Shown here: positions 10,729 through 56,841 of the stretch, one piece after another
Numbering within the stretch: position 1 is the stretch's first letter
Layout: each line of letters opens with the position of its first letter
NCBI GenBank assembly: GCA_022614855.1
Contig: JAKEHU010000006.1
Location: 20,537-84,536 of the forward strand
Direction of reading: 5' to 3'
Source of the DNA: Chlamydiota bacterium
GTDB taxonomy: Bacteria; Chlamydiota; Chlamydiia; Chlamydiales; Rhabdochlamydiaceae
Length of the DNA: 64,000 nt
Position numbers and translations under genes: made by a program
Notes under the pieces: model-generated
What the model saw: the letters and a program-made list of their open reading frames with translations, nothing else
Databases searched by the model: none
What the model was told of the DNA's origin: nothing

Positions 10729-11724
10729 TTAGAGATGCTCTTCTTTTATTGCGCGTTGCAATAAGGTTTTTACTGCATCGCGCGGATTTAACCCTTCATA
10801 TAAAATTGAATATACAGCTTCTGTGATGGGAATGGGAATATGATGTTTTTTCCCCAACTGAAAAGCAGAAACACAGGTATAAATCCCCTCCACGACCATG
10901 CCAATCTTTTCCTGTGCCTTTTTTGCATCCACTCCCTCTCCGATTAACTTTCCAAACTTATTGTTGCGAGAGTGTTTTGACATACATGTCACACACAAAT
11001 CGCCAAGACCTGAAAGGCCGTTCAGAGTCTCAGGATTGCACTCTTTTGCCGCAGATAATTTGCGCATTTCATGAAGACCTCTCGTCATTAACGCAGCAAC
11101 GGTATTGTCCCCAAATCCCAACCCAAGTGCAATTCCACAGGCAATTGCCACAATGTTTTTCATCGCACCGCCAAAAGCAACTCCATTGATATCTGAATTG
11201 GGATAGATTCGAAAATAGGGTGTGGAAAAGATTTCTAAAATTTTTTTCATCAACTCTTTGTCATAGGCAGAGCAGACGATTGCAGTGGGTAGCTTTCTGA
11301 TGACCTCTTCAGCATGGCTTGGGCCACTTAGGCAACCAATTTGCGAACGATGATTTTTTCCCAGAACTTGCGCAACCACTTCTGGAAGCAAAAGACCTGT
11401 ATCTTGTTCAATTCCTTTAGAAGTAATGATAACAGGACAAGAAACTTTTCCAAGAGAGACCACCTCTTCAAAGACAGGTCTGACCCCTGAAGAAGTAACA
11501 GATTCAACAATAAGTTCTGCATTTTTTAGTGTTTGAGATAGGTCACTTGTTATGCGAATCTTTTCATTTTTAAAACCCGGAAGTTTTGGATGTTCTCTTT
11601 TTTTTAATAAAGTTTTAACCAATTCTGGGTCTTTAGCCCACAGGGTTACATCATGTCCATTTTCGCTTAGGAGCAATGATAGACAAAAGCCCCAAGTTCC
11701 AGCACCTAAATAGGCAATCTTCAT
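10729..11724 (-). CDS. gpsA: NAD(P)H-dependent glycerol-3-phosphate dehydrogenase
   Basis: The motifs are MKIAYLGAGTWG, GPSHAEEV and GGAMKNIVAIACG. Confidence 0.9.
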   Translation of the reverse strand: MKIAYLGAGTWGFCLSLLLSENGHDVTLWAKDPELVKTLLKKREHPKLPGFKNEKIRITSDLSQTLKNAELIVESVTSSGVRPVFEEVVSLGKVSCPVIITSKGIEQDTGLLLPEVVAQVLGKNHRSQIGCLSGPSHAEEVIRKLPTAIVCSAYDKELMKKILEIFSTPYFRIYPNSDINGVAFGGAMKNIVAIACGIALGLGFGDNTVAALMTRGLHEMRKLSAAKECNPETLNGLSGLGDLCVTCMSKHSRNNKFGKLIGEGVDAKKAQEKIGMVVEGIYTCVSAFQLGKKHHIPIPITEAVYSILYEGLNPRDAVKTLLQRAIKEEHL

Positions 11725-19063: not shown

Positions 19064-19689
19064 ATAAAAACCAGCGAGCAAAGTTCATCCAAAAGAAATT
19101 AAAAGAGCTTTTCCCCCATCCTGAAATTCCTTTGCACCACAGGAATTCTTATACTCTTCTCATTGCAGTATTGCTTTCGGCCCAATGTACAGATGCAAGA
19201 GTCAATAAAATTACTCCACTTCTTTTTGCAAAAGCAGATAGTCCAAAAAAAATGATACAACTGGATATCAAAGAAATCGAAGAGATCATCAGACCTTGTG
19301 GCCTCGGCAAAAATAAAGCAAAAGCAATTTGGCACCTTTCGAAAAAAATTCTAGAAGATCACAAAGGGAAAGTCCCAAATACTTTTGAAGAATTAGAAGA
19401 GCTCCCTGGTGTAGGCCATAAAACGGCATCGGTTGTCATGTCTCATGCATTTGATAAACTTGCCTTTCCTGTAGATACACACATCCATCGCTGTGCAAAA
19501 AGGTGGGGTTTAAGCAATGGAAAAAGTGTTGCTCAAACAGAAAAAGATTTGAAGAAACTTTTTCCAAAAAAAGATTGGCATCTTCTCCATCTGCAAATCA
19601 TCTATTACGCGCGCAAATACTGTCCTGCAAGAGGCCACAAAATAGCTCACTGTCCTATCTGTAGAGAAATGCTAAAAGCTAAAGTATAA
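19060..19689 (+). CDS. nth: Endonuclease III (HhH-GPD DNA glycosylase, 4Fe-4S)
   Basis: LLSAQCTDARVN, LPGVGHKTASVV, VDTHIHR and C..C..C. Confidence 0.9.
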   Translation: MNKNQRAKFIQKKLKELFPHPEIPLHHRNSYTLLIAVLLSAQCTDARVNKITPLLFAKADSPKKMIQLDIKEIEEIIRPCGLGKNKAKAIWHLSKKILEDHKGKVPNTFEELEELPGVGHKTASVVMSHAFDKLAFPVDTHIHRCAKRWGLSNGKSVAQTEKDLKKLFPKKDWHLLHLQIIYYARKYCPARGHKIAHCPICREMLKAKV

Positions 19690-19764
19690 AGGCTAAAAAA
19701 GAAGAGAGAAATGGACTACAAGAAACAAATTCTCCGATTTTAGCCTTTAGACTTTAGCTTTTAG
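19670..19764. repeat. REP-like long hairpin, AAAGGCTAAAAGCTAAAG family, copy c
   Basis: The 28-nt arms (19670-19697 and 19737-19764) have one mismatch. The element lies between the convergent genes nth and psd, and the last nth codons and its stop lie in the left arm. Confidence 0.8.
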
Positions 19765-19773
19765 CTTTTGCCT

Positions 19774-20688
19774 TTACAAAGGGGAGAGGGCTCTGCCAAG
19801 CGATTCACCCATTTTGCCAAGGACCTCCATTCTTTTTTGCGATGCCTCTAAAAGATCCTGGTCAAACTGAATGCGAAAAGGTTCAAAAAGAAGGATGATG
19901 CAAGATCCTCCAAAGGAAAAATATCCCTTTTCATCTCCCTTAGCGTAGTGTTCTTCTGGAATGTAGGTCTGATGAATCGATCCCACATAAGTAGCGCCGA
20001 TTTCAATGAAAAGAACCGGACCAAAATTTTTTGTTTGAAGTTGTGTGACCACCCTTTTGTTTTCCGTCAAAATGTGAATATTTTTGCAAAGTGCAATGGG
20101 ATTTACAGAAAAAAGAGCGCCATTTATGGCTTTTCCATTTCCGGGAACGCAATTGCAGGGAAAATGAAATCGATGATAATCGACAGGAGCTAGCCTTGCA
20201 ATCACCATGGACCCATGCAGATATTTGTGTGCAATCGTCTCATTTTTAATCAACTCTTCTAGAGAAAATTTCTTTCCTTTTACAATAAATCCATCGCTTC
20301 TTTGAACCTCAGGAAATACCAGATACCTTCCGTCCGCCGGTAGGATTGCTACATCATTGCCATTGGTAATTGACCTTGCAGAAGGTTTTAATTTTCGAAT
20401 GAAAAAATCATTAAACGAAGAAAAGGAAGAAACAGGGTCTAAAAATTCCGTTGTATCAATTTGAAAACGGCGGATAAATGGGCCAATTTTGTATCTGCTC
20501 CATTTGCTCTTTTGAAATTTTCCATACATTTTAGAAAAAAGCGAAATGCGTGAAATAAGTCCCAAAAAAAGGAGGGAAAAAATCCAGGAAATGGGATTAT
20601 TGCCATAAAGAAGATTAAGAAAAAATTTGCCATAAACTCTTTCTACTTCTACTTTTTTGTTCTGCCGATTAAGATAGCGAATTTCCAT
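19774..20688 (-). CDS. psd: Phosphatidylserine decarboxylase proenzyme
   Basis: The N-terminus RYLNRQNKKVEVERV is typical of chlamydial Psd as I recall it. Other motifs are FNDFFIRKLKP, LAPVDYHRFHFP and GYFSFGGS (cleavage site). Confidence 0.9.
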   Translation of the reverse strand: MEIRYLNRQNKKVEVERVYGKFFLNLLYGNNPISWIFSLLFLGLISRISLFSKMYGKFQKSKWSRYKIGPFIRRFQIDTTEFLDPVSSFSSFNDFFIRKLKPSARSITNGNDVAILPADGRYLVFPEVQRSDGFIVKGKKFSLEELIKNETIAHKYLHGSMVIARLAPVDYHRFHFPCNCVPGNGKAINGALFSVNPIALCKNIHILTENKRVVTQLQTKNFGPVLFIEIGATYVGSIHQTYIPEEHYAKGDEKGYFSFGGSCIILLFEPFRIQFDQDLLEASQKRMEVLGKMGESLGRALSPL

Positions 20689-20849
20689 GAACCTATCCGC
20701 AAATTCTAAAAATTTGATTTTTGTAAGATTTTTCCATCATATTTTTATGCCACTTTGAAGGACATACTTGCAAAGTCAAGCCGAGAAGTGGCATAAAAAT
20801 ATGACGAAAAAGATACGAAAAGCAGGTTTTAGAATTTGCGGATAGGTTC
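20689..20849. mobile_element. MITE-like palindromic element, family GAACCTATCC, full copy A (161 bp)
   Basis: The ~25-bp terminal inverted repeats are GAACCTATCCGCAAATTCTAAAA / TTTTAGAATTTGCGGATAGGTTC. It is highly similar by eye to the reverse complement of 46899-47059. It starts immediately after the psd start codon. Confidence 0.9.
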
Positions 20850-20923
20850 ATGTGTTAATTCAATTGAACCGAATCAGCATAATTCTTTCAAATATTCTAT
20901 TTAGTAAGGAAATATTTTAAAAA

Positions 20924-27054: not shown

Positions 27055-28458
27055 ATGGAAAGAAAAAAATTTGATATAGCTGTGATTGGTGCAGGTCCTG
27101 GAGGATATGTCGCTGCGATCAAAGCTGCACAAAGCGGAAAGGCAGTCTGCTTGATTGAAAAAAAGGATTTGGGAGGGACTTGCCTGAATGTAGGATGCAT
27201 TCCGACCAAAACTCTACTTGCCAATGCATCGATCATGCACAAAATGAAAATGGCTGAAGAATTTGGCATTTCCGCAAAGGATATTTCCTTTGATTTTGCA
27301 AAAATGAAAGTTCGTAAAGATAGCGTAGTAGACAAACTTAGGAAAAGTTTGGGCAGTCTTTTACAGAGCAATAAAATTGTAATCATTCAAGGAATAGCTG
27401 AATTTATCTCCCCTAAAGAATTGAAAATAAAGGGAAAAGAAAATTATTTTATCGATGCAGACTATATCATCATTGCCACTGGATCGGAACCACTTGATAT
27501 TGGTGCCTTTCCCTGTGATCATAAGAAAATTTTAAATTCCACATCCATTTTGGAACTCACCCATCTTCCGAAGAGTTTGGCAATCATCGGAGGCGGATAC
27601 ATTGGGTGCGAGTTTGCATCTCTTTATGCAGCATTTGGCGTAAAAGTTACCATTTTAGAAGCTCTTCCTATGATTATTGCAAATATGGGAAAGATGATTT
27701 CTGATAGTTTGACCTTTTCTTTAAAAAAAAAGGGGGTTGAGATAGTAACGGATGCAATGGTAGAAGGAATTGATAAAAGAGAAAATGGGGTAACCATAAG
27801 ACTGAAAAATCGAGATTCTTTACCAAGCGATCTTGCTCTTGTTGCAATTGGAAGAAAAATTGTCTCCAAGGATCTTGGGCTAGAAAAAGCTGGAGTAAAA
27901 GTGAGAGAGAAAGGGGAAATTCCAGTCGACGAGAAGATGCAGACAAATATCCCTGGAATTTATGCAATTGGAGATGTCACAGGAAAATTCTTGCTTGCCC
28001 ATGTTGCCTCGCACCAAGGAATTATCGCTGCTTCTCACATTTTGGGAGAAGAGAGTTCGATGCGCTATGATGCTGTTCCTGCTGTGATCTTTACCGATCC
28101 AGAAATTGCAACTGTGGGTATGAGTTTAGAAGAAGCACAAAAATCTGGATTGGAACTTGCAGTTGGCAAATTTCCTTTCCAAGCGCTTGGGAAGGCAATT
28201 GCTGCAAATGAAACGGAAGGTTTTGTCCATATCATTTCCGATAAGAAAACGGGAAAAATTTTGGGAGCACAAGCAATTGGCCACGAGGTTTCTAATCTCA
28301 TCGCTGAAATTGCTCTGGCTATCAACAATGAGCTCACTTTAGAATGCATTGCAGATACAATCCATGCTCATCCCACTCTGCCAGAAGCATGGCTAGAAGC
28401 TGCGCTGATTGCCAATGAGACACCGATTCATTTCCCTCCAAAAAAGAGATCTTTATGA
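27055..28458 (+). CDS. lpdA: Dihydrolipoyl dehydrogenase (E3)
   Basis: VIGAGPGGYVAAIKAAQ, GGTCLNVGCIPTK and HAHPTLPE. Confidence 0.93.
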   Translation: MERKKFDIAVIGAGPGGYVAAIKAAQSGKAVCLIEKKDLGGTCLNVGCIPTKTLLANASIMHKMKMAEEFGISAKDISFDFAKMKVRKDSVVDKLRKSLGSLLQSNKIVIIQGIAEFISPKELKIKGKENYFIDADYIIIATGSEPLDIGAFPCDHKKILNSTSILELTHLPKSLAIIGGGYIGCEFASLYAAFGVKVTILEALPMIIANMGKMISDSLTFSLKKKGVEIVTDAMVEGIDKRENGVTIRLKNRDSLPSDLALVAIGRKIVSKDLGLEKAGVKVREKGEIPVDEKMQTNIPGIYAIGDVTGKFLLAHVASHQGIIAASHILGEESSMRYDAVPAVIFTDPEIATVGMSLEEAQKSGLELAVGKFPFQALGKAIAANETEGFVHIISDKKTGKILGAQAIGHEVSNLIAEIALAINNELTLECIADTIHAHPTLPEAWLEAALIANETPIHFPPKKRSL

Positions 28459-29381
28459 AAGCAAATCCTCTTCAAATTATCGATGAAGAAAAGGCGGTAT
28501 CTACAGGCCGCTTTCCAAAATGGCTTCATATCTCTCTTCCAAAAGGAGGCGAGATTTTCAAAACCAACCAGATTTTGGAAAAATATCGATTGAATACCGT
28601 TTGTGAAGAGGCAAAATGTCCCAATCGGATGGAATGCTACTCGAAAAAGACAGCTACTTTTTTAGCTTTAGGCAAAGAGTGTTCTCGAAGTTGCGGATTT
28701 TGCAATATTGATTTCACAAAAAAACCAAAAGCCCCTGAAGAAGATGAGCCGAAAAGAATTGCTTTTTCTGCCAAAGAATTAAGGCTAAAACATGTTGTCA
28801 TTACGATGGTTGCAAGAGATGATCTCCCAGATGGCGGAGCTGTCCATCTTGCTGCCATCATTCGTGAAGTGAGAAAGGAAAATCCTCAGTGCACAGTGGA
28901 AATTTTAACTTCTGATTTTGCCGGAAACTTTGCATCCCTCGATATTGTCCTAGAAGAATCTCCGGAAATCTTCAACCACAATATTGAAACAGTTCGCTCT
29001 CTAACACCAAAAGTAAGACATAAAGCTACTTATGATCGCACTTTATCAATTCTTTCTTATGTTAAAAAAAAGAAAAAAAATCATTTTCTCAAATCTGGTC
29101 TAATGTTAGGACTTGGAGAAACGGAAGAAGAGGTGAAGAAGACGATTGGCGATTTACATGAAGTTGGCTGCGATATTGTGACTATGGGTCAATATCTCCA
29201 ACCAAGCAAACACAATATCCAAGTAAAAAGATTTGTTCATCCCGATGAATTTAAAGCCTATACAGAATATGGACGTGCCATAGGAATAAAAGAGATGTAT
29301 TGCGGTCCTTTTGTCAGGTCTAGTTACAATGCTCATGAAATCCACTCTCATTTAATAGATCATGTTACGCAAAAAGATTAG
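28455..29381 (+). CDS. lipA: Lipoyl synthase
   Basis: CEEAKCPN and CSRSCGFC (radical SAM CxxxCxxC). A 4-nt overlap links it to lpdA. Confidence 0.93.
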   Translation: MKANPLQIIDEEKAVSTGRFPKWLHISLPKGGEIFKTNQILEKYRLNTVCEEAKCPNRMECYSKKTATFLALGKECSRSCGFCNIDFTKKPKAPEEDEPKRIAFSAKELRLKHVVITMVARDDLPDGGAVHLAAIIREVRKENPQCTVEILTSDFAGNFASLDIVLEESPEIFNHNIETVRSLTPKVRHKATYDRTLSILSYVKKKKKNHFLKSGLMLGLGETEEEVKKTIGDLHEVGCDIVTMGQYLQPSKHNIQVKRFVHPDEFKAYTEYGRAIGIKEMYCGPFVRSSYNAHEIHSHLIDHVTQKD

Positions 29382-29409
29382 TGATTTACATTATGCAGAG
29401 AACTTGTTT

Positions 29410-29728
29410 AGACATGTCGGGGACATCCTTTGTGTACGTGTCATCTTGCAGGACCAACTTCAGAAACTTGTTTACTTTTGGTTTTTTGGTTTTAAAAATA
29501 GCTCTGCGAAGTGACGCGAGAAGGGAATCCGCCCAAAGGAGGCGAAGCCCGGGCGGGAAGTGAGCGCGTGAGCAGCCGATTGACTCAGATCGCTTTAGGA
29601 AAATTGCTTCAAAGGAGTGGGGACAGTACTCTGTACGGATCCACGACGGAGAAGTGATTTTACAAAGCGAGGTGAGTCGCAAGGGGGGCAGCAGGGGACA
29701 AGCCATAGGACTTGTTTCCGACATGTCT
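29410..29728 (+). ncRNA. Candidate structured RNA of unknown class (GC-rich non-coding island)
   Basis: AGACATGTCGGGGA at 29410-29423 pairs with TTTCCGACATGTCT at 29715-29728 over 14 bp. Two of the pairs are G-U, so the helix is complete only in a plus-strand transcript. The interior is clearly more GC-rich than the flanks and has local hairpins (CCGCCC..GGGCGG, GCGA-GGTGAG-TCGC). No credible ORF is present. Confidence 0.4.
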
Positions 29729-29777
29729 TATGGAGGTACTCTTAAAGGGATTACTTTGGCATAAGGTGGCTTAATAA

Positions 29778-30698
29778 ATGACAGCTAAAATCGCTATTCT
29801 CATTTTGCATTATAAAAATATTGCCGATACCTATGAATGTCTCACTTCAGTCTTTCGCATTTCTTATCCCCATTTTTCTGTTATCGTCATCGACAACTGC
29901 TCTACAGATCTTTCCGAATTGGAACTAAAAGAGCGGTTTCCAAAAGTAACGATCTTAAAAAACAAAGCGAATTTGGGATATGCTGAGGGAAATAATCGAG
30001 GGATCTCCTATGCCATGGACCAAGGATATGATTTTTTCTTTCTCCTGAACAATGATACGGTTGTCCATCCGAATATCTTGCATGCATTTATTGATGCATC
30101 TACAGCTTTTCCGAGCGGAGGGATATTTGGAGCAAAGGTCTACTTCTATGACGAACCCACACAAATTAGCTATGCTGGAGGAACTATTGATCCACATCAG
30201 ATGCGATGCATTCATATCGGCTGTGGTCAATCTGATTTAGAAAAAAACCATGAAGAGGTGGTGAAAACAGACTACGCCTGTGGATGTGCGCTTTTAGTGA
30301 GAAAAGAGGTGGTACAAAAATGCGGCATGATGGATTCGCGCTTTTTTTTAATTTGGGAAGAGGTCGATTGGTGTTGGAAAATTCGGAAAGCTGGTTTTGA
30401 TTGTTTTTTTGTCCCCATGGCAAAAATCTGGCATAAAGTTTCCACCTCTTTTGAAGGTGGCAATAGAGGCCCTCTTTGGCAATACTACTATTTTCGCAAT
30501 CGCCTTCTCTTTATGAAAAACCATTTTTCTTTGAAAGAGAGGTGGAGATTTTATCGAAATACTTTTGCAAAAGAAGTTTTAGACTTATGCAAAACCTCTT
30601 TTAGCTCTAAGACCGATCCTTTCCAACGATTGCAATATCGAGCTGCTTTGCGCGGAGTAGTTGATTATTTTCTTCATAAAAATGGTTCTAAAGAGTGA
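29778..30698 (+). CDS. Family 2 glycosyltransferase (rhamnosyltransferase-like)
   Basis: ILILHYKN...VIVIDNCSTD, LGYAEGNNRG and LLNNDT (DxD-like). Confidence 0.75.
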   Translation: MTAKIAILILHYKNIADTYECLTSVFRISYPHFSVIVIDNCSTDLSELELKERFPKVTILKNKANLGYAEGNNRGISYAMDQGYDFFFLLNNDTVVHPNILHAFIDASTAFPSGGIFGAKVYFYDEPTQISYAGGTIDPHQMRCIHIGCGQSDLEKNHEEVVKTDYACGCALLVRKEVVQKCGMMDSRFFLIWEEVDWCWKIRKAGFDCFFVPMAKIWHKVSTSFEGGNRGPLWQYYYFRNRLLFMKNHFSLKERWRFYRNTFAKEVLDLCKTSFSSKTDPFQRLQYRAALRGVVDYFLHKNGSKE

Positions 30699-31983
30699 AA
30701 TGATCTTTGATTTCTGTTCCTTGCGTCACAATGATGATTCCATCTCGAATAAAAATGCCTTTGCCATCCATGGTTTGTAGCTTATCTTTATTCACTAGAT
30801 TCACATGATTCCCAATTTTTGTATGCTCATCGATGATGCATTTTTCAATAAGACAATTTTCCCCAATGGAATATTTATCCGTTTCTTGCATCTCATCACT
30901 TTCTAAATCATAACTCTTATTCCCTAGAATGATGGAGTCGCGAATTACAGTGTTTTTTTTGATGATTGCGCGGACTCCAATGACGCTATGGCTTATTTCA
31001 CGAGCTTCAATAATAGAACCTTGGCTGATCAGAGAATTTTCGATTTTAGTTCCTTGAATTAAAGCACTTGGTACGTGTTGTACAGCAGAATAAATAGGAT
31101 TTTGCAGGTCATAAGTATTCAACCCCTTTCCCTTTTCTGTTAAAATTAAATTGGCCTCATAATAGGATGCGATTGTTCCAATATCTTCCCAATACCCATC
31201 GTAAACAAATGCCGCCGACTTCCACTTTTTGATGAAATTTGGAATCAAATGTCTGCCAAAATCATCCCCTTCTCCCTTTAAAATGGAAATGAGAGCCTTG
31301 CGTTTAAATATATAAATTCCCATGGAACCAAGCCATTTTTCTTCTTTTTCATTGGGAAAGTGGTTTCTCTTTAAAAATTCTATGGGAAGTTGAAACTGCT
31401 TTAGCAGCTTTTCTTCTTGTGGCTTTTCGAAAAAACTCTGCACATCAAACTCATGATTTACTTTTAAAACCCCCATTCGCATCGCCTCTTCTCTTTCTAC
31501 TGGAAGGGCAGCAATCGTGAGATCCGCATTTTTTTGCTTTGCAAATTCGACCATTTGGACAAGATTCATGTTATAGAGTTGGTCTCCTGAAAGAATCAGG
31601 AAATATTCTATGGGAAACCGCAAGAGATAGTCGAGGTTTTGTCTAATTGCATCTGCTGTTCCTTTAAACCAACTTTTTCCCTTTGGCGTCTCTTGAGGGG
31701 TCAAAAGTTCTATACCACCTCTGCGAAAAATATCTAAATGATAAGTAGCGAGAATGTGCTGATGCAGCTCTGAAGCAAAATATTGAGAAATGACAAAAAT
31801 CTGATTGATTTTTGCATTTAGTGAATTGGATAAGGGGATATCGATCAACCGATAGCGCCCTCCAAAACTGACAGATGGTTTACATCGAAAGGAGGTTAAA
31901 GGATATAGACGAGTCCCTTGACCACCAGCTAAAACAATGGTGGCTACTCTTGAGACAATATTCTCCTCTTTTTTTGTATTCAC
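30688..31983 (-). CDS. glgC: Glucose-1-phosphate adenylyltransferase
   Basis: IVLAGGQGTRLYPLT, FKGTADAI and WEDIGTI, with a left-handed beta-helix C-terminus. Confidence 0.9.
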   Translation of the reverse strand: MNTKKEENIVSRVATIVLAGGQGTRLYPLTSFRCKPSVSFGGRYRLIDIPLSNSLNAKINQIFVISQYFASELHQHILATYHLDIFRRGGIELLTPQETPKGKSWFKGTADAIRQNLDYLLRFPIEYFLILSGDQLYNMNLVQMVEFAKQKNADLTIAALPVEREEAMRMGVLKVNHEFDVQSFFEKPQEEKLLKQFQLPIEFLKRNHFPNEKEEKWLGSMGIYIFKRKALISILKGEGDDFGRHLIPNFIKKWKSAAFVYDGYWEDIGTIASYYEANLILTEKGKGLNTYDLQNPIYSAVQHVPSALIQGTKIENSLISQGSIIEAREISHSVIGVRAIIKKNTVIRDSIILGNKSYDLESDEMQETDKYSIGENCLIEKCIIDEHTKIGNHVNLVNKDKLQTMDGKGIFIRDGIIIVTQGTEIKDHFTL

Positions 31984-32118: not shown

Positions 32119-32283
32119 AACCTGAGTTTTGGGTTTAATTCGCTCAGAATCAACGATCTTTTCAAGGTCTTTCTCATTTTTTTCCTCGAAAATAGCGCCT
32201 TCGGCTATTATCTTCGGATAAAAATGAAAAAGCTCATTGAAAATCTCTATTGATTCAGAGGAAAGAAACCCAAAACTCAGGTT
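32119..32283. mobile_element. MITE-like palindromic element, family CTGAG, copy 2 (165 bp, inverted relative to copy 1)
   Basis: Its termini are AACCTGAGTTTTGGG...CCCAAAACTCAGGTT. It ends 3 nt before the ATG at 32287. Confidence 0.85.
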
Positions 32284-32286
32284 TTT

Positions 32287-33039
32287 ATGTCTGTCTGGGC
32301 CATTGCAGATCTCCATCTTTCTTTTAGCACTCCAAGTAAAAGCATGGAAATCTTTGGAGAAAAATGGAGAAATTATACCAAAAAAGTAGAACAATTTTGG
32401 AAAGAGCGCATTTCTCCTGACGATCTCATTCTCATTCCTGGAGACATTTCCTGGGCATCTAGTTTAGAAGAGGCTGCTCAAGACTTACATTGGATTCATT
32501 CTTTGCCAGGAACAAAATTGATGATAAAGGGGAATCACGATTTTTGGTGGCCCTCTTCCAAAAAATTGAAAGAGAGGTTTCCCTCTTCCATCAAATTCAT
32601 CTATAACACTGCTTTTCATTGGCATGAGTATAGCTTTGGAGGGTCGAGGCTGTGGGATAGTGAGGAGTACTCTTTTGAACCGTTCATTGAATATGTTGCT
32701 CGGCCGCAGCAAAAAAAAACAGAATATGACGCTGAAACGGCGAGAAATCTCAACAAAACAGTTTTTAATAGAGAGCTGGAAAGGTTAAAATTAAGCCTGA
32801 GCAAGCTCAACCCAAAAGCTAAGAAAAAAGTCGCTCTGACCCACTATCCCCCAATCGGTCCTGAGCTTACCCCTTCCAGAGCATCTGCTATTTTAGAAGA
32901 ATATGGAGTTGATATTTGCGTCTTTGGCCACCTTCATAATGTAAAACCGCGCTCTCTTTCTTTTGGAAAAGCAAGAGGCGTCTCCTACTTCCTAACCTCT
33001 TGCGACTTTATCGACTTTTGCCCAATAAAAATTTTATGA
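32287..33039 (+). CDS. Calcineurin-like metallophosphoesterase
   Basis: WAIADLHLS, IPGDISW, KGNHDFWW and FGHLH motifs. Confidence 0.75.
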   Translation: MSVWAIADLHLSFSTPSKSMEIFGEKWRNYTKKVEQFWKERISPDDLILIPGDISWASSLEEAAQDLHWIHSLPGTKLMIKGNHDFWWPSSKKLKERFPSSIKFIYNTAFHWHEYSFGGSRLWDSEEYSFEPFIEYVARPQQKKTEYDAETARNLNKTVFNRELERLKLSLSKLNPKAKKKVALTHYPPIGPELTPSRASAILEEYGVDICVFGHLHNVKPRSLSFGKARGVSYFLTSCDFIDFCPIKIL

Positions 33040-33206
33040 ACCTGAGTTTTTGGGGTTTTTCATGGAGAATTGGTGCAGATTGTGAGACAATTTCTTTGGA
33101 TCTAGACGAATCCAATAGTCGAAGGAGCTTATGGATGAGGAGAGATCCAAAGAAATTGGCCGCAAAATGCGGCAAGGCTCTATGAAAAAACCCAAAAACT
33201 CAGGTT
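33039..33206. mobile_element. MITE-like palindromic element, family CTGAG termini, copy 3 (168 bp, divergent interior)
   Basis: Its termini are AACCTGAGTTTTTGGGG...CCCAAAAACTCAGGTT. An internal inverted repeat pairs CAATTTCTTTGGATCT with AGATCCAAAGAAATTG. It begins on the last base of the upstream stop codon. Confidence 0.8.
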
Positions 33207-33628
33207 ATGAAAGGTCTTACCTTCTGATCGAACTTCTAATTTGCCTTTCTCTTTTTACAGCATGCAGCTATTTTCTTATCTTTCTTCCCTTTTCTAACCT
33301 TAGGAAAGAGGTAGAATATCTTTACAAAATGGAACTGGAAAGGGATCTTGTCCAGGCTTATGTTCACGCAAAAGAGCTTTTTTACTGCAATTCAATTCCC
33401 TTCAACCATCTGACAAAATCCGCGGTTCTATCTAGCGATAAGGTAGAAATCCATTTGCATCCAAAATGGAAAAAAAAGATCTATAGAAAGGAACTGGTTT
33501 TTCAAAAAAGTAAAAGTAAAAAAGTTCAGGACATTGAATATTTTTTGGTTAAGGTACAAATCAAATACCTTGAAGGAAAAAAGAAAGCTTTATCAAAAAA
33601 TTTTGAATTTTTTCTCAAAAAAGTATGA
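33182..33628 (+). CDS. Type II secretion minor pseudopilin-like protein (GspH/I-like)
   Basis: MKKPKNSGYERS-YLLIELLICLSLFTA has a prepilin-type N-terminal hydrophobic helix with Glu at +5. The start is chosen at the ATG at 33182, which lies inside the MITE. An upstream in-frame ATG at 33131 is also possible. Confidence 0.55.
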   Translation: MKKPKNSGYERSYLLIELLICLSLFTACSYFLIFLPFSNLRKEVEYLYKMELERDLVQAYVHAKELFYCNSIPFNHLTKSAVLSSDKVEIHLHPKWKKKIYRKELVFQKSKSKKVQDIEYFLVKVQIKYLEGKKKALSKNFEFFLKKV

Positions 33629-45098: not shown

Positions 45099-46898
45099 TC
45101 ATAGATTTAGATTAATGATGAGAAGTGTGATGTCATCTTCTTGGTCTAGTCCAGAAGAAAAATTTTGCACCTCGTGGATGATTATATTCACAAGGTCTTG
45201 TGATTTTTTACTTTGTGCGTGTTTGATCAATTCTTTCAATCGATCTATGCCAAAGGTCTCTTTTTCTCGATTTCTAGCTTCAATAATTCCATCCGTATAA
45301 AGAATGAGAAAATCTCCTTTTCGAAGTGTCATTTCTTGAATGGAAAGATGGTCGAGTTCCATTACTCCCAATGCAATACCATCTCCTCTTAACTGGTGCA
45401 TCGTTCCATCTGACCTACGCAAAATTGCCGGCAAATGTCCTGAATTATGATAATAGAGTTTTTTTTGTCTTCGATCAAAAAGCCCTACCCAGGCTGTTAC
45501 AAAATTATGTGAACCGACCGTATCGAGGTACAATAAATTATTTGTCTCTAAAAGAATTCTGTCCAAACTATGTTTTTCCTTGGCTAAACTTCTGAGCGTG
45601 CTTCTCACCGAAAGAGAAAAAAGAGATGCACCGATTCCCTTTCCCGATCCATCTGCAATAGAAAAAAGAAGAGTATTGTCATCTGGCGCAAACAGATCAT
45701 AAAAATCTCCTGCAACTGTTTTTGCCGGAATGAATTTTGTTCCAATATCTATTCCAGGAATTTGAGGAATTTCTTTGGGAAAAAGAGTTTTTTGAATTTC
45801 ATGGCCAATTTTTAATTCATTTTCTAAAAGTTCTCTTGAAATTTTTTCACTTTTTGCTGTTTCCATTTGCGTTAAGAGGTCTTCAATCATCTGATTAAAT
45901 CCCCTTCCTAAAACATTGATCTCAAATCCCATCTTTTCCTTTTCATACCTCGCATTCAAATCTCCATGTTGTACTTTCTCCATAACAGAAAATAGTTGTT
46001 TCAAGGGTCTGCCCATTTTTATGGTCATGATGCAAGCAGTTCCACCTCCTATGAAAAGTAGAATGATAAATAGACTGGAAATGGGATAAAGAAAGTGGTT
46101 TACCGCAAAAAGATCGATTCCCAAATGAGAAAGATTTGCCAAAAGAGAAAATGAAGCGTCTTCAATGGGAATTTCAATGGCTAACCGACTTTCTCGATTT
46201 GTAAAAACATCCCAAATTGAAAGGGAAAACATCCACTTGTTTAACTCATTAGCATGAAAAATCTCCATTTTTTCTCTTTCAAATTGTGGCTTGGTGGTAA
46301 GCACAATTTGGCCAGATGGATCGACCAAAGAAAGGTTAAAATCGCCTAAAACATCGCCGAAAGCTGCAATATTTTCTAACCAACTTTGCCCAGCAGTGAT
46401 AAAAGCTAGACATTTTTTTTTCGTTTTATCTGTTTTTAAAAGAACAAGCTCAGTTGAGATAAAAGAGAGTTCACGAGAAATAAAAACGAGCGTGCCTCTT
46501 TCGGAAGCTAAAGAAAGCTCTTCAGAAAAAAAAGTTTTTCCTATTAACGATGGTTCGCTGCCATTTTTACAAATCCATTTGCCCTCTTCCAAAGAAAAGG
46601 AAAAAAGACCGCTTAATTTTAACTTCTGAGCAAGAACCTCAAAAGAGACGGCTCCATTTTCAATCAAATTTGCATCGAGAGATCTGAGTTCAATCCATTG
46701 ATTGATCAGGTGCGCATGTGCTTTAGCAAAAGAGGAAAGTTCAAAAAAAAGTGCACGCATTCTTGTTTGATAATCTCGATGCCACAAAACGATGCTATGA
46801 ACCACTAAAGGGACAATGATAAATGCAACACAGATAAGCGCGACTCGAAGTCCTAGCGAGCCGACCAGATGTCGAAGGGCAATTCTTTTTCTTTCCAT
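45099..46898 (-). CDS. rsbU: RsbU-like sensor PP2C phosphatase (periplasmic domain + HAMP + SpoIIE/PP2C)
   Basis: Two TM segments flank a ~250-aa extracytoplasmic region. A HAMP segment (MGRPLKQLFSVMEKVQHGDLNARY) is followed by PP2C motifs (VAGDFYD, IADGSGKG, LYTDGIIEA). Confidence 0.85.
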   Translation of the reverse strand: MERKRIALRHLVGSLGLRVALICVAFIIVPLVVHSIVLWHRDYQTRMRALFFELSSFAKAHAHLINQWIELRSLDANLIENGAVSFEVLAQKLKLSGLFSFSLEEGKWICKNGSEPSLIGKTFFSEELSLASERGTLVFISRELSFISTELVLLKTDKTKKKCLAFITAGQSWLENIAAFGDVLGDFNLSLVDPSGQIVLTTKPQFEREKMEIFHANELNKWMFSLSIWDVFTNRESRLAIEIPIEDASFSLLANLSHLGIDLFAVNHFLYPISSLFIILLFIGGGTACIMTIKMGRPLKQLFSVMEKVQHGDLNARYEKEKMGFEINVLGRGFNQMIEDLLTQMETAKSEKISRELLENELKIGHEIQKTLFPKEIPQIPGIDIGTKFIPAKTVAGDFYDLFAPDDNTLLFSIADGSGKGIGASLFSLSVRSTLRSLAKEKHSLDRILLETNNLLYLDTVGSHNFVTAWVGLFDRRQKKLYYHNSGHLPAILRRSDGTMHQLRGDGIALGVMELDHLSIQEMTLRKGDFLILYTDGIIEARNREKETFGIDRLKELIKHAQSKKSQDLVNIIIHEVQNFSSGLDQEDDITLLIINLNL

Positions 46899-47059
46899 GA
46901 ACCTATCCGCAAATTCTAAAACTTGCTTTTCGTATCTTTTTCGTCATATTTTCATGCCATTTCTTGTCCTACTTATATAAGTATGTCCTTCGAAGTGGCA
47001 TGAAAATCTGATGAAAAAATCTTACAAAAATCAAACTTCTAGAATTTGCGGATAGGTTC
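46899..47059. mobile_element. MITE-like palindromic element, family GAACCTATCC, full copy C (161 bp)
   Basis: It has the same terminal repeats as copy A. It fills almost the entire divergent rsbU/trmH intergenic region and starts immediately after the rsbU start codon. Confidence 0.9.
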
Positions 47060-47082
47060 AACCTTGCCACTGATGTTATATT

Positions 47083-54522: not shown

Positions 54523-54683
54523 GGTAGTCCGCAACATGTAAGGCTAATAAATTGCGAAGTGGAGCGGTTCAAAGGCAAGTCAAATGACGAGTTCATAGCG
54601 AAAAAAGCTATGGACGAGGAATTTGACGAAGCATATGAATCGCTTACACGAGCAGGAATTAGCCTTACATGTTAAGGACTACC
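54523..54683. mobile_element. MITE-like element, family GGTAGTCC (161 bp) with a 7-bp target-site duplication
   Basis: The 26-nt terminal inverted repeats are GGTAGTCCgcAACATGTAAGGCTAAT and ATTAGCCTTACATGTTaaGGACTACC, sharing 24 of 26 positions. It is flanked by the direct repeat GAAATAT at 54516-54522 and 54684-54690. An internal hairpin pairs GTCAAAT..CATAGC with GCTATG..ATTTGAC. Confidence 0.8.
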
Positions 54684-56767: not shown

Positions 56768-56841
56768 TGCACCGGAGAGGATTCGAACCTCTGACCTCAC
56801 GGTTCGTAGCCGTGTACTCTATCCAGCTGAGCTACCGGTGC
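56768..56841 (-). tRNA. tRNA-Arg (anticodon ACG)
   Basis: The reverse complement, GCACCGGTAGCTCAGCTGGATAGAGTACACGGCTACGAACCGTGAGGTCAGAGGTTCGAATCCTCTCCGGTGCA, folds as a canonical cloverleaf. The anticodon loop is CTACGAA and the T-loop TTCGAAT. CCA is not encoded. Confidence 0.95.

Follow-up and report, generated by a model that had tools for sequence, protein, structure and literature searches.

PATEs are IS200/IS605-type elements that lack an ORF and carry omega-RNA genes used in trans (PMC10055086). REPINs are inverted doublets of REP sequences mobilised by RAYT transposases (PMC3116915, PMC3733652). A REP unit has 20–40 nt and a GTAG or CGTC head. The locus compared with them here lies between lipA and a family-2 glycosyltransferase (GT2) gene in 64,000 nt of chlamydial DNA, referred to as the window, and had been marked in an earlier inspection of the letters (the original prediction) as an unassigned structured-RNA candidate. 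Positions 29410–29731 of the window are one copy, with part of it deleted, of a palindromic repeat that occurs many times in intergenic DNA and whose ∼235-nt module carries a covarying, RNA-like fold; we consider it probable that this repeat is a non-autonomous selfish unit with its arms transcribed outward (feature coordinates are collected in Table 1). The repeat is apparently undescribed, as full-text literature searches on chlamydial repeats or non-coding RNAs gave no account of it.

In geometry the repeat is closest to the ORF-less omega-RNA elements of the IS200/IS605 type. Like PATEs, it is short and multicopy, has neither an ORF nor a target-site duplication, and has the 3′ end of its structured RNA abutting the element boundary, with a subterminal hairpin that here lies 11 nt from the end. 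Unlike a PATE, it has one RNA module of ∼235 nt repeated in inverted orientation at both ends, and the loci examined yielded neither a TnpB or TnpA partner nor a conserved target motif in the flanks; the left flanks of 17 elements share only a final AT where a PATE target motif (TAM) would take up 4–5 nt. For want of that motif and partner the element is at most 'like' a PATE and is not filed there. With REPINs it shares two inverted unit copies that give a long hairpin, intergenic location, multiple copies and the lack of target-site duplications. However, no GTAG or CGTC head is seen at the ends of its unit, which at ∼235 nt is far longer than a REP unit and combines the tail GACAUGUCUAU with a covarying fold of three hairpins. 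MITE-type palindromic repeats include the Correia elements of Neisseria and the Rickettsia palindromic elements, which are similarly non-coding, have inverted termini, lie in intergenic DNA near genes, occur in several size variants and may be co-transcribed with neighbouring genes. To our knowledge, elements of this type have no covariation-supported internal RNA fold. Terminal inverted repeats, a MITE trait, are present in the 17 complete elements with at most two mismatches per end, but MITEs also have target-site duplications, whereas none flanks any of these 17, the AT on both sides being part of the palindrome. The loci examined likewise gave no parent insertion sequence that shares these termini and encodes a transposase. 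HEARO RNAs were orphans before IscB was understood, and with IscB the guide is at the 5′ end, whereas the boundary here is at the RNA 3′ end. These IscB-associated omega-RNAs (Rfam RF02033) are also large, GC-rich, multicopy and often without an adjacent ORF, but the window copy and three homologues gave no Rfam match at E ≤ 10.

The original prediction had described the island after lipA as GC- and purine-rich, and this is borne out. A composition scan places the highest-GC 150-nt windows of the whole 64 kb within it, the GC content being 0.575 at 29500–29699 compared with 0.374 window-wide, and since GC skew and AT skew are both +0.29 over the same positions the island is purine-rich. The 14-bp helix that was said to close it is also present, 29410–29423 (AGACATGTCGGGGA) pairing with 29715–29728 (TTTCCGACATGTCT) and including two G-T pairs (29421/29717 and 29422/29716). 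The plus strand of the island has a minimum folding energy of −123.2 kcal/mol (z = −5.3 against shuffled sequence), and the minus strand gives an equal z, so that folding thermodynamics alone makes no choice of strand. The word GACATGTC, correctly recognized as palindromic, is 8 nt long and occurs in the window solely at the two island ends (2 matches, 0.46 expected). As for ACTTGTTT, reported to precede each helix arm with a third copy between, three copies do exist, at 29402, 29466 and 29710 (3 of the 8 matches in the 64-kb window), but the last overlaps the right arm by 3 nt and does not precede it. The threefold recurrence of GAAGTGA (29508, 29557 and 29651) is real, although the window has 10 matches in all, about as many as chance would give.

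The closest lipA genes are 61–72% identical and are all found in Chlamydiae MAGs of Rhabdochlamydiaceae, Simkaniaceae or Parachlamydiaceae type, and the gene order lpdA–lipA–(GT2)–glgC–phosphoesterase is kept among chlamydial relatives. The lipA–GT2 gap is about 5–35 nt in three of them (loci L006, L015 and L033) compared with 396 nt in the window, where the element fills it, and the window copy is therefore an insertion; mobility is judged here from presence and absence among distant relatives (lipA 67–72% identical) and not among strains. A Logan contig (L081) from the same strain aligns across the island for 461 nt with no difference and is for that reason uninformative. Of the small foreign insertion bounded by direct repeats that had been offered as one explanation, the insertion thus agrees with the empty junctions of the relatives, but the family boundaries are inverted termini (ATAGACATGTCGGG ... 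CCCGACATGTCTAT) and are not accompanied by a target-site duplication. The 10-nt direct repeats AACTTGTTTA, 64 nt apart, that flank the partner-module stump could be a duplication scar, a deletion scar or chance.

Conservation in relatives, on which the structured-RNA proposal depended, was found. A profile search over 80 chlamydial lipA loci, which make 81 neighbourhoods with the 64-kb window added, returned one clear homologue, in a Simkaniaceae MAG (L038, E = 9e-7), that is aligned at 11292–11521, extends over about 11270–11610 in full and consists of blocks of identity between variable, indel-rich stretches. Word searches identified two copies in L004, one a near-perfect hairpin of 158 nt that shares the termini and carries the motif GGTGAGGCGCAAGGGGG, the other a 59-nt remnant; L025 has one degenerate copy. 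The element is thereby present in 4 of 81 chlamydial lipA neighbourhoods, a count that refers to lipA neighbourhoods only. The copies in the relatives occupy other intergenic sites of the lipA gene cluster, following the phosphoesterase gene in L038, preceding glgC in L025, and in L004 both following the phosphoesterase gene and upstream of lpdA. A metagenome scan with a pattern of the positions common to all three forms of the element gave 28 further loci, mostly from one chlamydial metagenome (LNFM01), in which several single contigs carry two to four sites (up to four on a 313-kb contig), and the genes flanking these loci have chlamydial best matches with up to 88% identity. With the family profile there are about 50 module matches in the loci examined, one of them in the window, where the profile and a covariance model agree on a single element copy. 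The repeat family is seen so far only on chlamydial contigs, from environmental Chlamydiae. An origin from a plasmid, phage or virus was considered and rejected, as blastn found no match to the element in plasmid and phage collections and pattern scans of IMG/VR viral contigs gave only chance matches in unrelated high-GC DNA, a single one with the pattern of the metagenome scan.

The family is built from a ∼235-nt module, of which the window has an intact example on the plus strand (29504–29731); it starts with CUGCGA...GAC, ends with CCCGACAUGUCUAU and is made up of three abutting stem-loops followed by the tail GACAUGUCUAU. Its usual form in the LNFM01 organism is a head-to-head dimer of 473–597 nt in which the 3′ ends of the two modules are at the outer boundaries and a poorly conserved central spacer of 16–52 nt separates them. 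The two arms of a dimer are of different subtypes, one with the long-arm helix GACUCAGAUCGC/GCGAGGUGAGGC and the other with GGCUUCAAGCCGC/GCGGAUUGAAGC or GGCUGCAGAUGGC/GCCAGGUGCAGC. The 319-nt forms (window and L119) contain one full module and the stump of its partner, while short hairpins of about 158–170 nt (L004, L110, L126 and L131) are made of two tails. The termini AGACATGTCGGG...CCCGACATGTCT are found within two mismatches in nearly all of these elements; 12 of the 17 elements listed, including the window copy, open with AGACATGTCGGG(G), and the remaining five have one or two mismatches to it. Similarity between copies ends from a few to ∼45 nt past the tail. In one subfamily the GACAUGUCUAU tail is followed by a CU-rich extension (AUUCAUCUCUUCUUUU...) of about 15–45 nt, seen in the 3′ flanks of L108, L109, L116, L118, L120, L126 and L130.

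In the window copy, the minus strand of 29410–29451 reads CTGCAAGATGAC followed immediately by ACGTACACAAAGGATGTCCCCGACATGTCT, such that the start of the partner module is joined directly to its tail and ∼200 nt of that module are deleted between the pieces 29410–29439 and 29440–29451. The comparable stretches in other copies read CTGCGACATGACACG... and ...TTGTCCCCGACATGTCT. The closing helix is therefore the pairing of two module tails, and the proposed RNA of ∼320 nt enclosed by it gives way to a conserved unit at 29504–29731, the left arm being the vestige of an inverted module. Central deletion is a known fate of long DNA palindromes. The AT-rich spacer of the window copy contains a weak promoter-like pair (TTTACT at 29469–29474, 16 nt, TAAAAAT at 29491–29497) that is below the scan threshold, and L038 has TTACTC-N17-TAGACT at the aligned place. 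No promoter at a fixed distance was found among the copies, in whose spacers the words TTAAGAAT and CTTTAC occur at inconsistent distances. A sigma-54-like TGGCAC was rejected as a promoter as it is not conserved among copies. The solitary module of L105 starts ∼12 nt past an apparent terminator, a hairpin plus T-run judged by eye.

Table 1. Coordinates of the element, its parts and the neighbouring features in the window.
Feature	Position	Strand	Detail
lpdA	27055–28458
lipA	28455–29381
AACTTGTTTA	29401–29410	+	left flank; exact repeat at 29465–29474; ACTTGTTT recurs at 29710–29717
Partner-module 3′ end remnant (left helix arm)	29410–29439	−	reverse complement ...GGATGTCCCCGACATGTCT matches module tail
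Partner-module 5′ start remnant	29440–29451	−	GTCATCTTGCAG is the reverse complement of CTGCAAGATGAC, close to family start CTGCGACATGAC
AT-rich central spacer	29452–29503	+	between the two arms
Stem-loop 1	29504–29575	+	P1 CUGC 29504–29507/GCAG 29572–29575; P2 ACGCG 29514–29518/CGCGU 29565–29569
Stem-loop 2 (long arm)	29576–29684	+	CC/GG, GACUCAGAUCGC/GCGAGGUGAGUC, AAAAU/AUUUU helix, apical hairpin 29620–29641
Stem-loop 3	29685–29719	+	GGGGACAAG / CUUGUUUCC, closed by conserved GGG/CCC pairs
3′ tail GACAUGUCUUAU (family consensus GACAUGUCUAU)	29720–29731	+	nearly invariant; outer boundary; holds 8-nt palindrome
Family-2 glycosyltransferase (GT2) gene	29778–30698
glgC	30688–31983	−	metallophosphoesterase gene also in cluster
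Further hairpin repeats	1087–1253, 1690–1862, 19644–19792, 20686–20852, 32119–32283, 33026–33219, 46898–47060, 54523–54683

The fold of the module was derived with RNAalifold from an alignment of 31 modules from at least six sources. The consensus has 41 pairs, comprising P1 (CUGC/GCAG), a long arm of ∼34 pairs with an apical hairpin, and the GGG/CCC pairs of stem-loop 3. Standard pairs occupy 97.8% of the cells in the 31 copies, and compensatory changes are seen at 23 of the 41 pairs (117 cells; covariation score 0.318). None of 500 shuffled controls reached any of five measures, and sliding the partners by 1–3 columns left 38–52% paired with 2–7 compensatory pairs. In stem-loop 1, P1 is retained in 28–30 of the 31 copies and P2 covaries, one of its pairs being GC in 12, AU in 6 and UA in 1 copy, and another CG in 13 and UA in 3. 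The same stem-loop has the compensatory sets CGCGAAA/UUUCGCG, CAUGAGA/UCUCAUG and GACA/UGUC, a variable apex, and purine-rich internal loops that hold two GAAGUGA words. The long arm provides 34 of the consensus pairs, 22 of them with compensatory changes, and its three subtypes are clean compensatory sets. In stem-loop 3 every one of the 31 copies has the GGG/CCC pairs either unchanged or as G-U; this local hairpin is seen when the module is folded alone and is an alternative to the long-range 14-bp helix. No linker nucleotides separate P1 from the long arm or the long arm from stem-loop 3, GCAG being followed directly by CC and GG directly by GGG. Of the 39 consensus pairs that can be scored in the window copy, 35 are standard; two further pairs fall on alignment gaps. 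The proposal of a structured-RNA candidate is accordingly supported by conservation in relatives and by strong covariation, and, as described below, by folding in the plus-strand sense.

The fold does not correspond to a known RNA family. Rfam searched over the whole window at the gathering threshold identified only a tRNA at 56768, searches at E ≤ 10 with the island and with the copies in L038, L128 and L114 gave noise (≤25 bits compared with gathering scores of 40–168), and ARAGORN detected no tmRNA in the window. RNase P, tmRNA, SRP, 6S, riboswitches and HEARO are rejected on these grounds, in line with the failure of the original prediction to recognize RNase P, tmRNA, SRP or B12-box signatures. 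A coding gene or a pseudogene of a known protein is also rejected, because Pfam has no match for the 112-residue ORF on the minus strand across the island or for the ORFs spanning other copies, and the substitutions in the helices are compensatory.

A repeat is not the only kind of entity that might show such conservation. The module could instead be a vertically inherited host gene for a trans-acting small RNA, housekeeping or regulatory, that was secondarily amplified in some lineages, in which case the window would contain the functional gene beside a decayed duplicate. The intact state of the window module, which matches the family profile over its full length (nhmmer, 134.9 bits, profile positions 4–239), is consistent with this, as are the between-lineage identity of 60–68% with helices preserved and the four lineages with a copy in the lpdA–lipA–glgC–phosphoesterase neighbourhood, a distribution that fits vertical inheritance too. 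So is the presence of a dimer in L108 (10165–10688) and of a solitary module in L114 (1339–1588) between the same two flanking genes, an orthologous locus although those genes are only ∼70% identical. However, only 4 of the 81 lipA neighbourhoods examined gave a copy and the lipA–GT2 junctions of relatives are empty, while several copies per contig, inverted dimers and deletion derivatives reduced to the termini are typical of repeats and not of sRNA genes, and on balance we regard a host RNA gene as unlikely. The pattern is that of a repeat gained, lost and then retained, and not of a cis-regulator of one gene.

No protein partner that might mobilise the element was identified. ORF clustering around the 28 metagenome loci produced only spurious ORFs within the element as recurrent neighbours, and the surroundings of the copies examined revealed no transposase, TnpB-like, Y1 or reverse-transcriptase partner. 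In L113 an IS982-type DDE transposase gene (406–1395; 293 aa, PF13612, DDE_Tnp_1_3) lies at the apex of a dimer, on a contig that is palindromic to its very ends and may be an assembly artefact. Three homologous transposases (61–66% identity) are encoded on 12 contigs that contain no module, and the L113 gene is hence a secondary insertion and was rejected as the parent of the element.

These searches bear on the possibility that the repeat is an ORF-less IS200/IS605 element of the PATE kind, each arm being omega-RNA-like with a guide taken from flanking DNA and served in trans by a TnpB-like nuclease and a Y1 transposase. The outward-pointing RNA 3′ ends located exactly at the element boundaries, the hairpin 11 nt from the end and the absence of an ORF and of target-site duplications all suit such an element. 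The known range of omega-RNA scaffold lengths includes ∼230 nt, the size of the scaffold here. Trans-used omega-RNAs, moreover, are described for PATEs (PMC10055086). Against this, none of the ∼50 module matches is joined to a TnpB ORF, neither a TnpB C-terminal motif nor a Y1 HUH motif turned up when 1.09 Mb of chlamydial DNA was scanned with crude patterns, and the left flanks have no conserved motif of 4–5 nt beyond the AT. Furthermore, the ends of IS200/IS605 elements are not normally long inverted copies of each other. Taken together, the evidence makes a true PATE-type element doubtful, and quite unlikely in our estimation.

The strand that folds is indicated by two measures. Among the consensus pairs there are 49 G-U or U-G cells compared with 7 A-C or C-A cells, which means that the sense strand folds, and R1, a covariance model of 130 positions built on the long arm (stem-loop 2), gives the plus strand of the window 94.4 bits (E = 3e-21) and the minus strand 17.3 bits. 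Plus-strand folding, which had been proposed from the two G-U pairs of the closing helix, is therefore retained for the module. Strand-specific G-T pairing could in principle also operate on single-stranded DNA, and the fold might then act only in single-stranded or cruciform DNA, in recombination, in replication or as a REPIN-like substrate of an HUH enzyme, without any functional RNA. The palindromic architecture, the conserved terminal 8-bp palindrome GACATGTC and the deletion forms that keep only the termini would all be expected of such an element, and neither a terminator-like site (terminator scan of the window, none in 29200–29900) nor a fixed-distance promoter among the copies was found. 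However, the G-U over A-C bias holds in the own sense of each dimer arm (14 versus 0 and 15 versus 2), and the arms are on opposite DNA strands, so that a single transferred strand would fold with A-C mismatches in one arm. This bias is easier to reconcile with outward transcription than with a single folded DNA strand. Known DNA hairpin substrates are, in addition, far simpler than a conserved 235-nt fold of several helices, and a purely DNA-level role is consequently very unlikely.

The elements fill whole intergenic regions, and their ends are 17–90 nt from stop codons (in all but three cases) or 31–193 nt from start codons, with convergent and co-oriented neighbours about equally common. 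The long 5′ leader for the glycosyltransferase that had been suggested, or a riboswitch controlling that gene, would fit a module that ends 47 nt before GT2 in the same orientation and is not separated from it by a terminator-like site, but is extremely improbable given that ∼24 of 43 module ends face a convergent gene 3′ end, that the co-oriented downstream genes are mutually unrelated and do not form one class, and that L006, L015 and L033 have GT2 next after lipA with no element between them. In the LNFM01 organism a module (L111, 13854–14057) lies 94 nt upstream of pgk, compared with pgk directly after lipA in a relative (L051, 768–795). Because no terminator-like site separates lipA from GT2, the window element is probably within, or at the start of, a transcript that reaches GT2, and it probably shapes the lipA–GT2 transcript. 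With read-through from lipA, the 319-nt form would fold into a long hairpin that includes the 14-bp helix.

We propose that the repeat is most likely a non-autonomous selfish unit that spreads or persists without target-site duplication, and that the predicted RNA would serve the element itself. In its full form it comprises two modules of different subtype placed head to head with the 3′ ends outermost, and each arm would be a candidate for outward transcription as RNA, as suggested by the pairing bias in the two arms. The left module in the window has lost ∼200 nt, its surviving end now pairing with the end of the right module to give the closing helix. A more specific version, in which two outward-reading guide-like or catalytic RNAs extend into both flanks, possibly dimerise through the palindromic GACAUGUC tail, and guide a trans-acting protein in homing, maintenance or regulation, would make the repeat a new ORF-less RNA-based selfish element, but this we put forward tentatively and as an improbable case. 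The family represents a large class of structured RNA, strongly covarying, that Rfam 15 does not contain. Its organisation is unusual, with two versions of a module head to head and 3′ ends at the boundaries but no ORF and no target-site duplication, and repeat-borne orphan RNAs so organised earlier proved to be guide RNAs of transposon nucleases. For annotation, it accounts for intergenic islands of high GC content in chlamydial MAGs and for long inverted repeats there, and it offers a marker for insertion polymorphism and rearrangement.

The window also contains eight further near-perfect hairpin repeats of 149–194 nt, or about one per 8 kb, and these include at least two multi-copy families, one with CATGAACCTATCCGCAAATTC... 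twice and one with AACCTGAGTTTTGGG... three times. They look like MITE-type palindromic elements and are unrelated in sequence to the island; as members of the present family they were rejected, having only weak scores of a generic-hairpin kind with the model and no profile match. One of them (32119–32283) borders the glgC segment, which is on the minus strand in the window and co-oriented with lipA in every relative that has glgC, a difference that indicates a local inversion. At the lipA–GT2 junction of another chlamydial MAG (L003, 3017–3116) there is a different GC-rich palindrome of 88 nt (AGATCGGGCTCGGGCTC ... GAGCCCGAGCCCGATCT).
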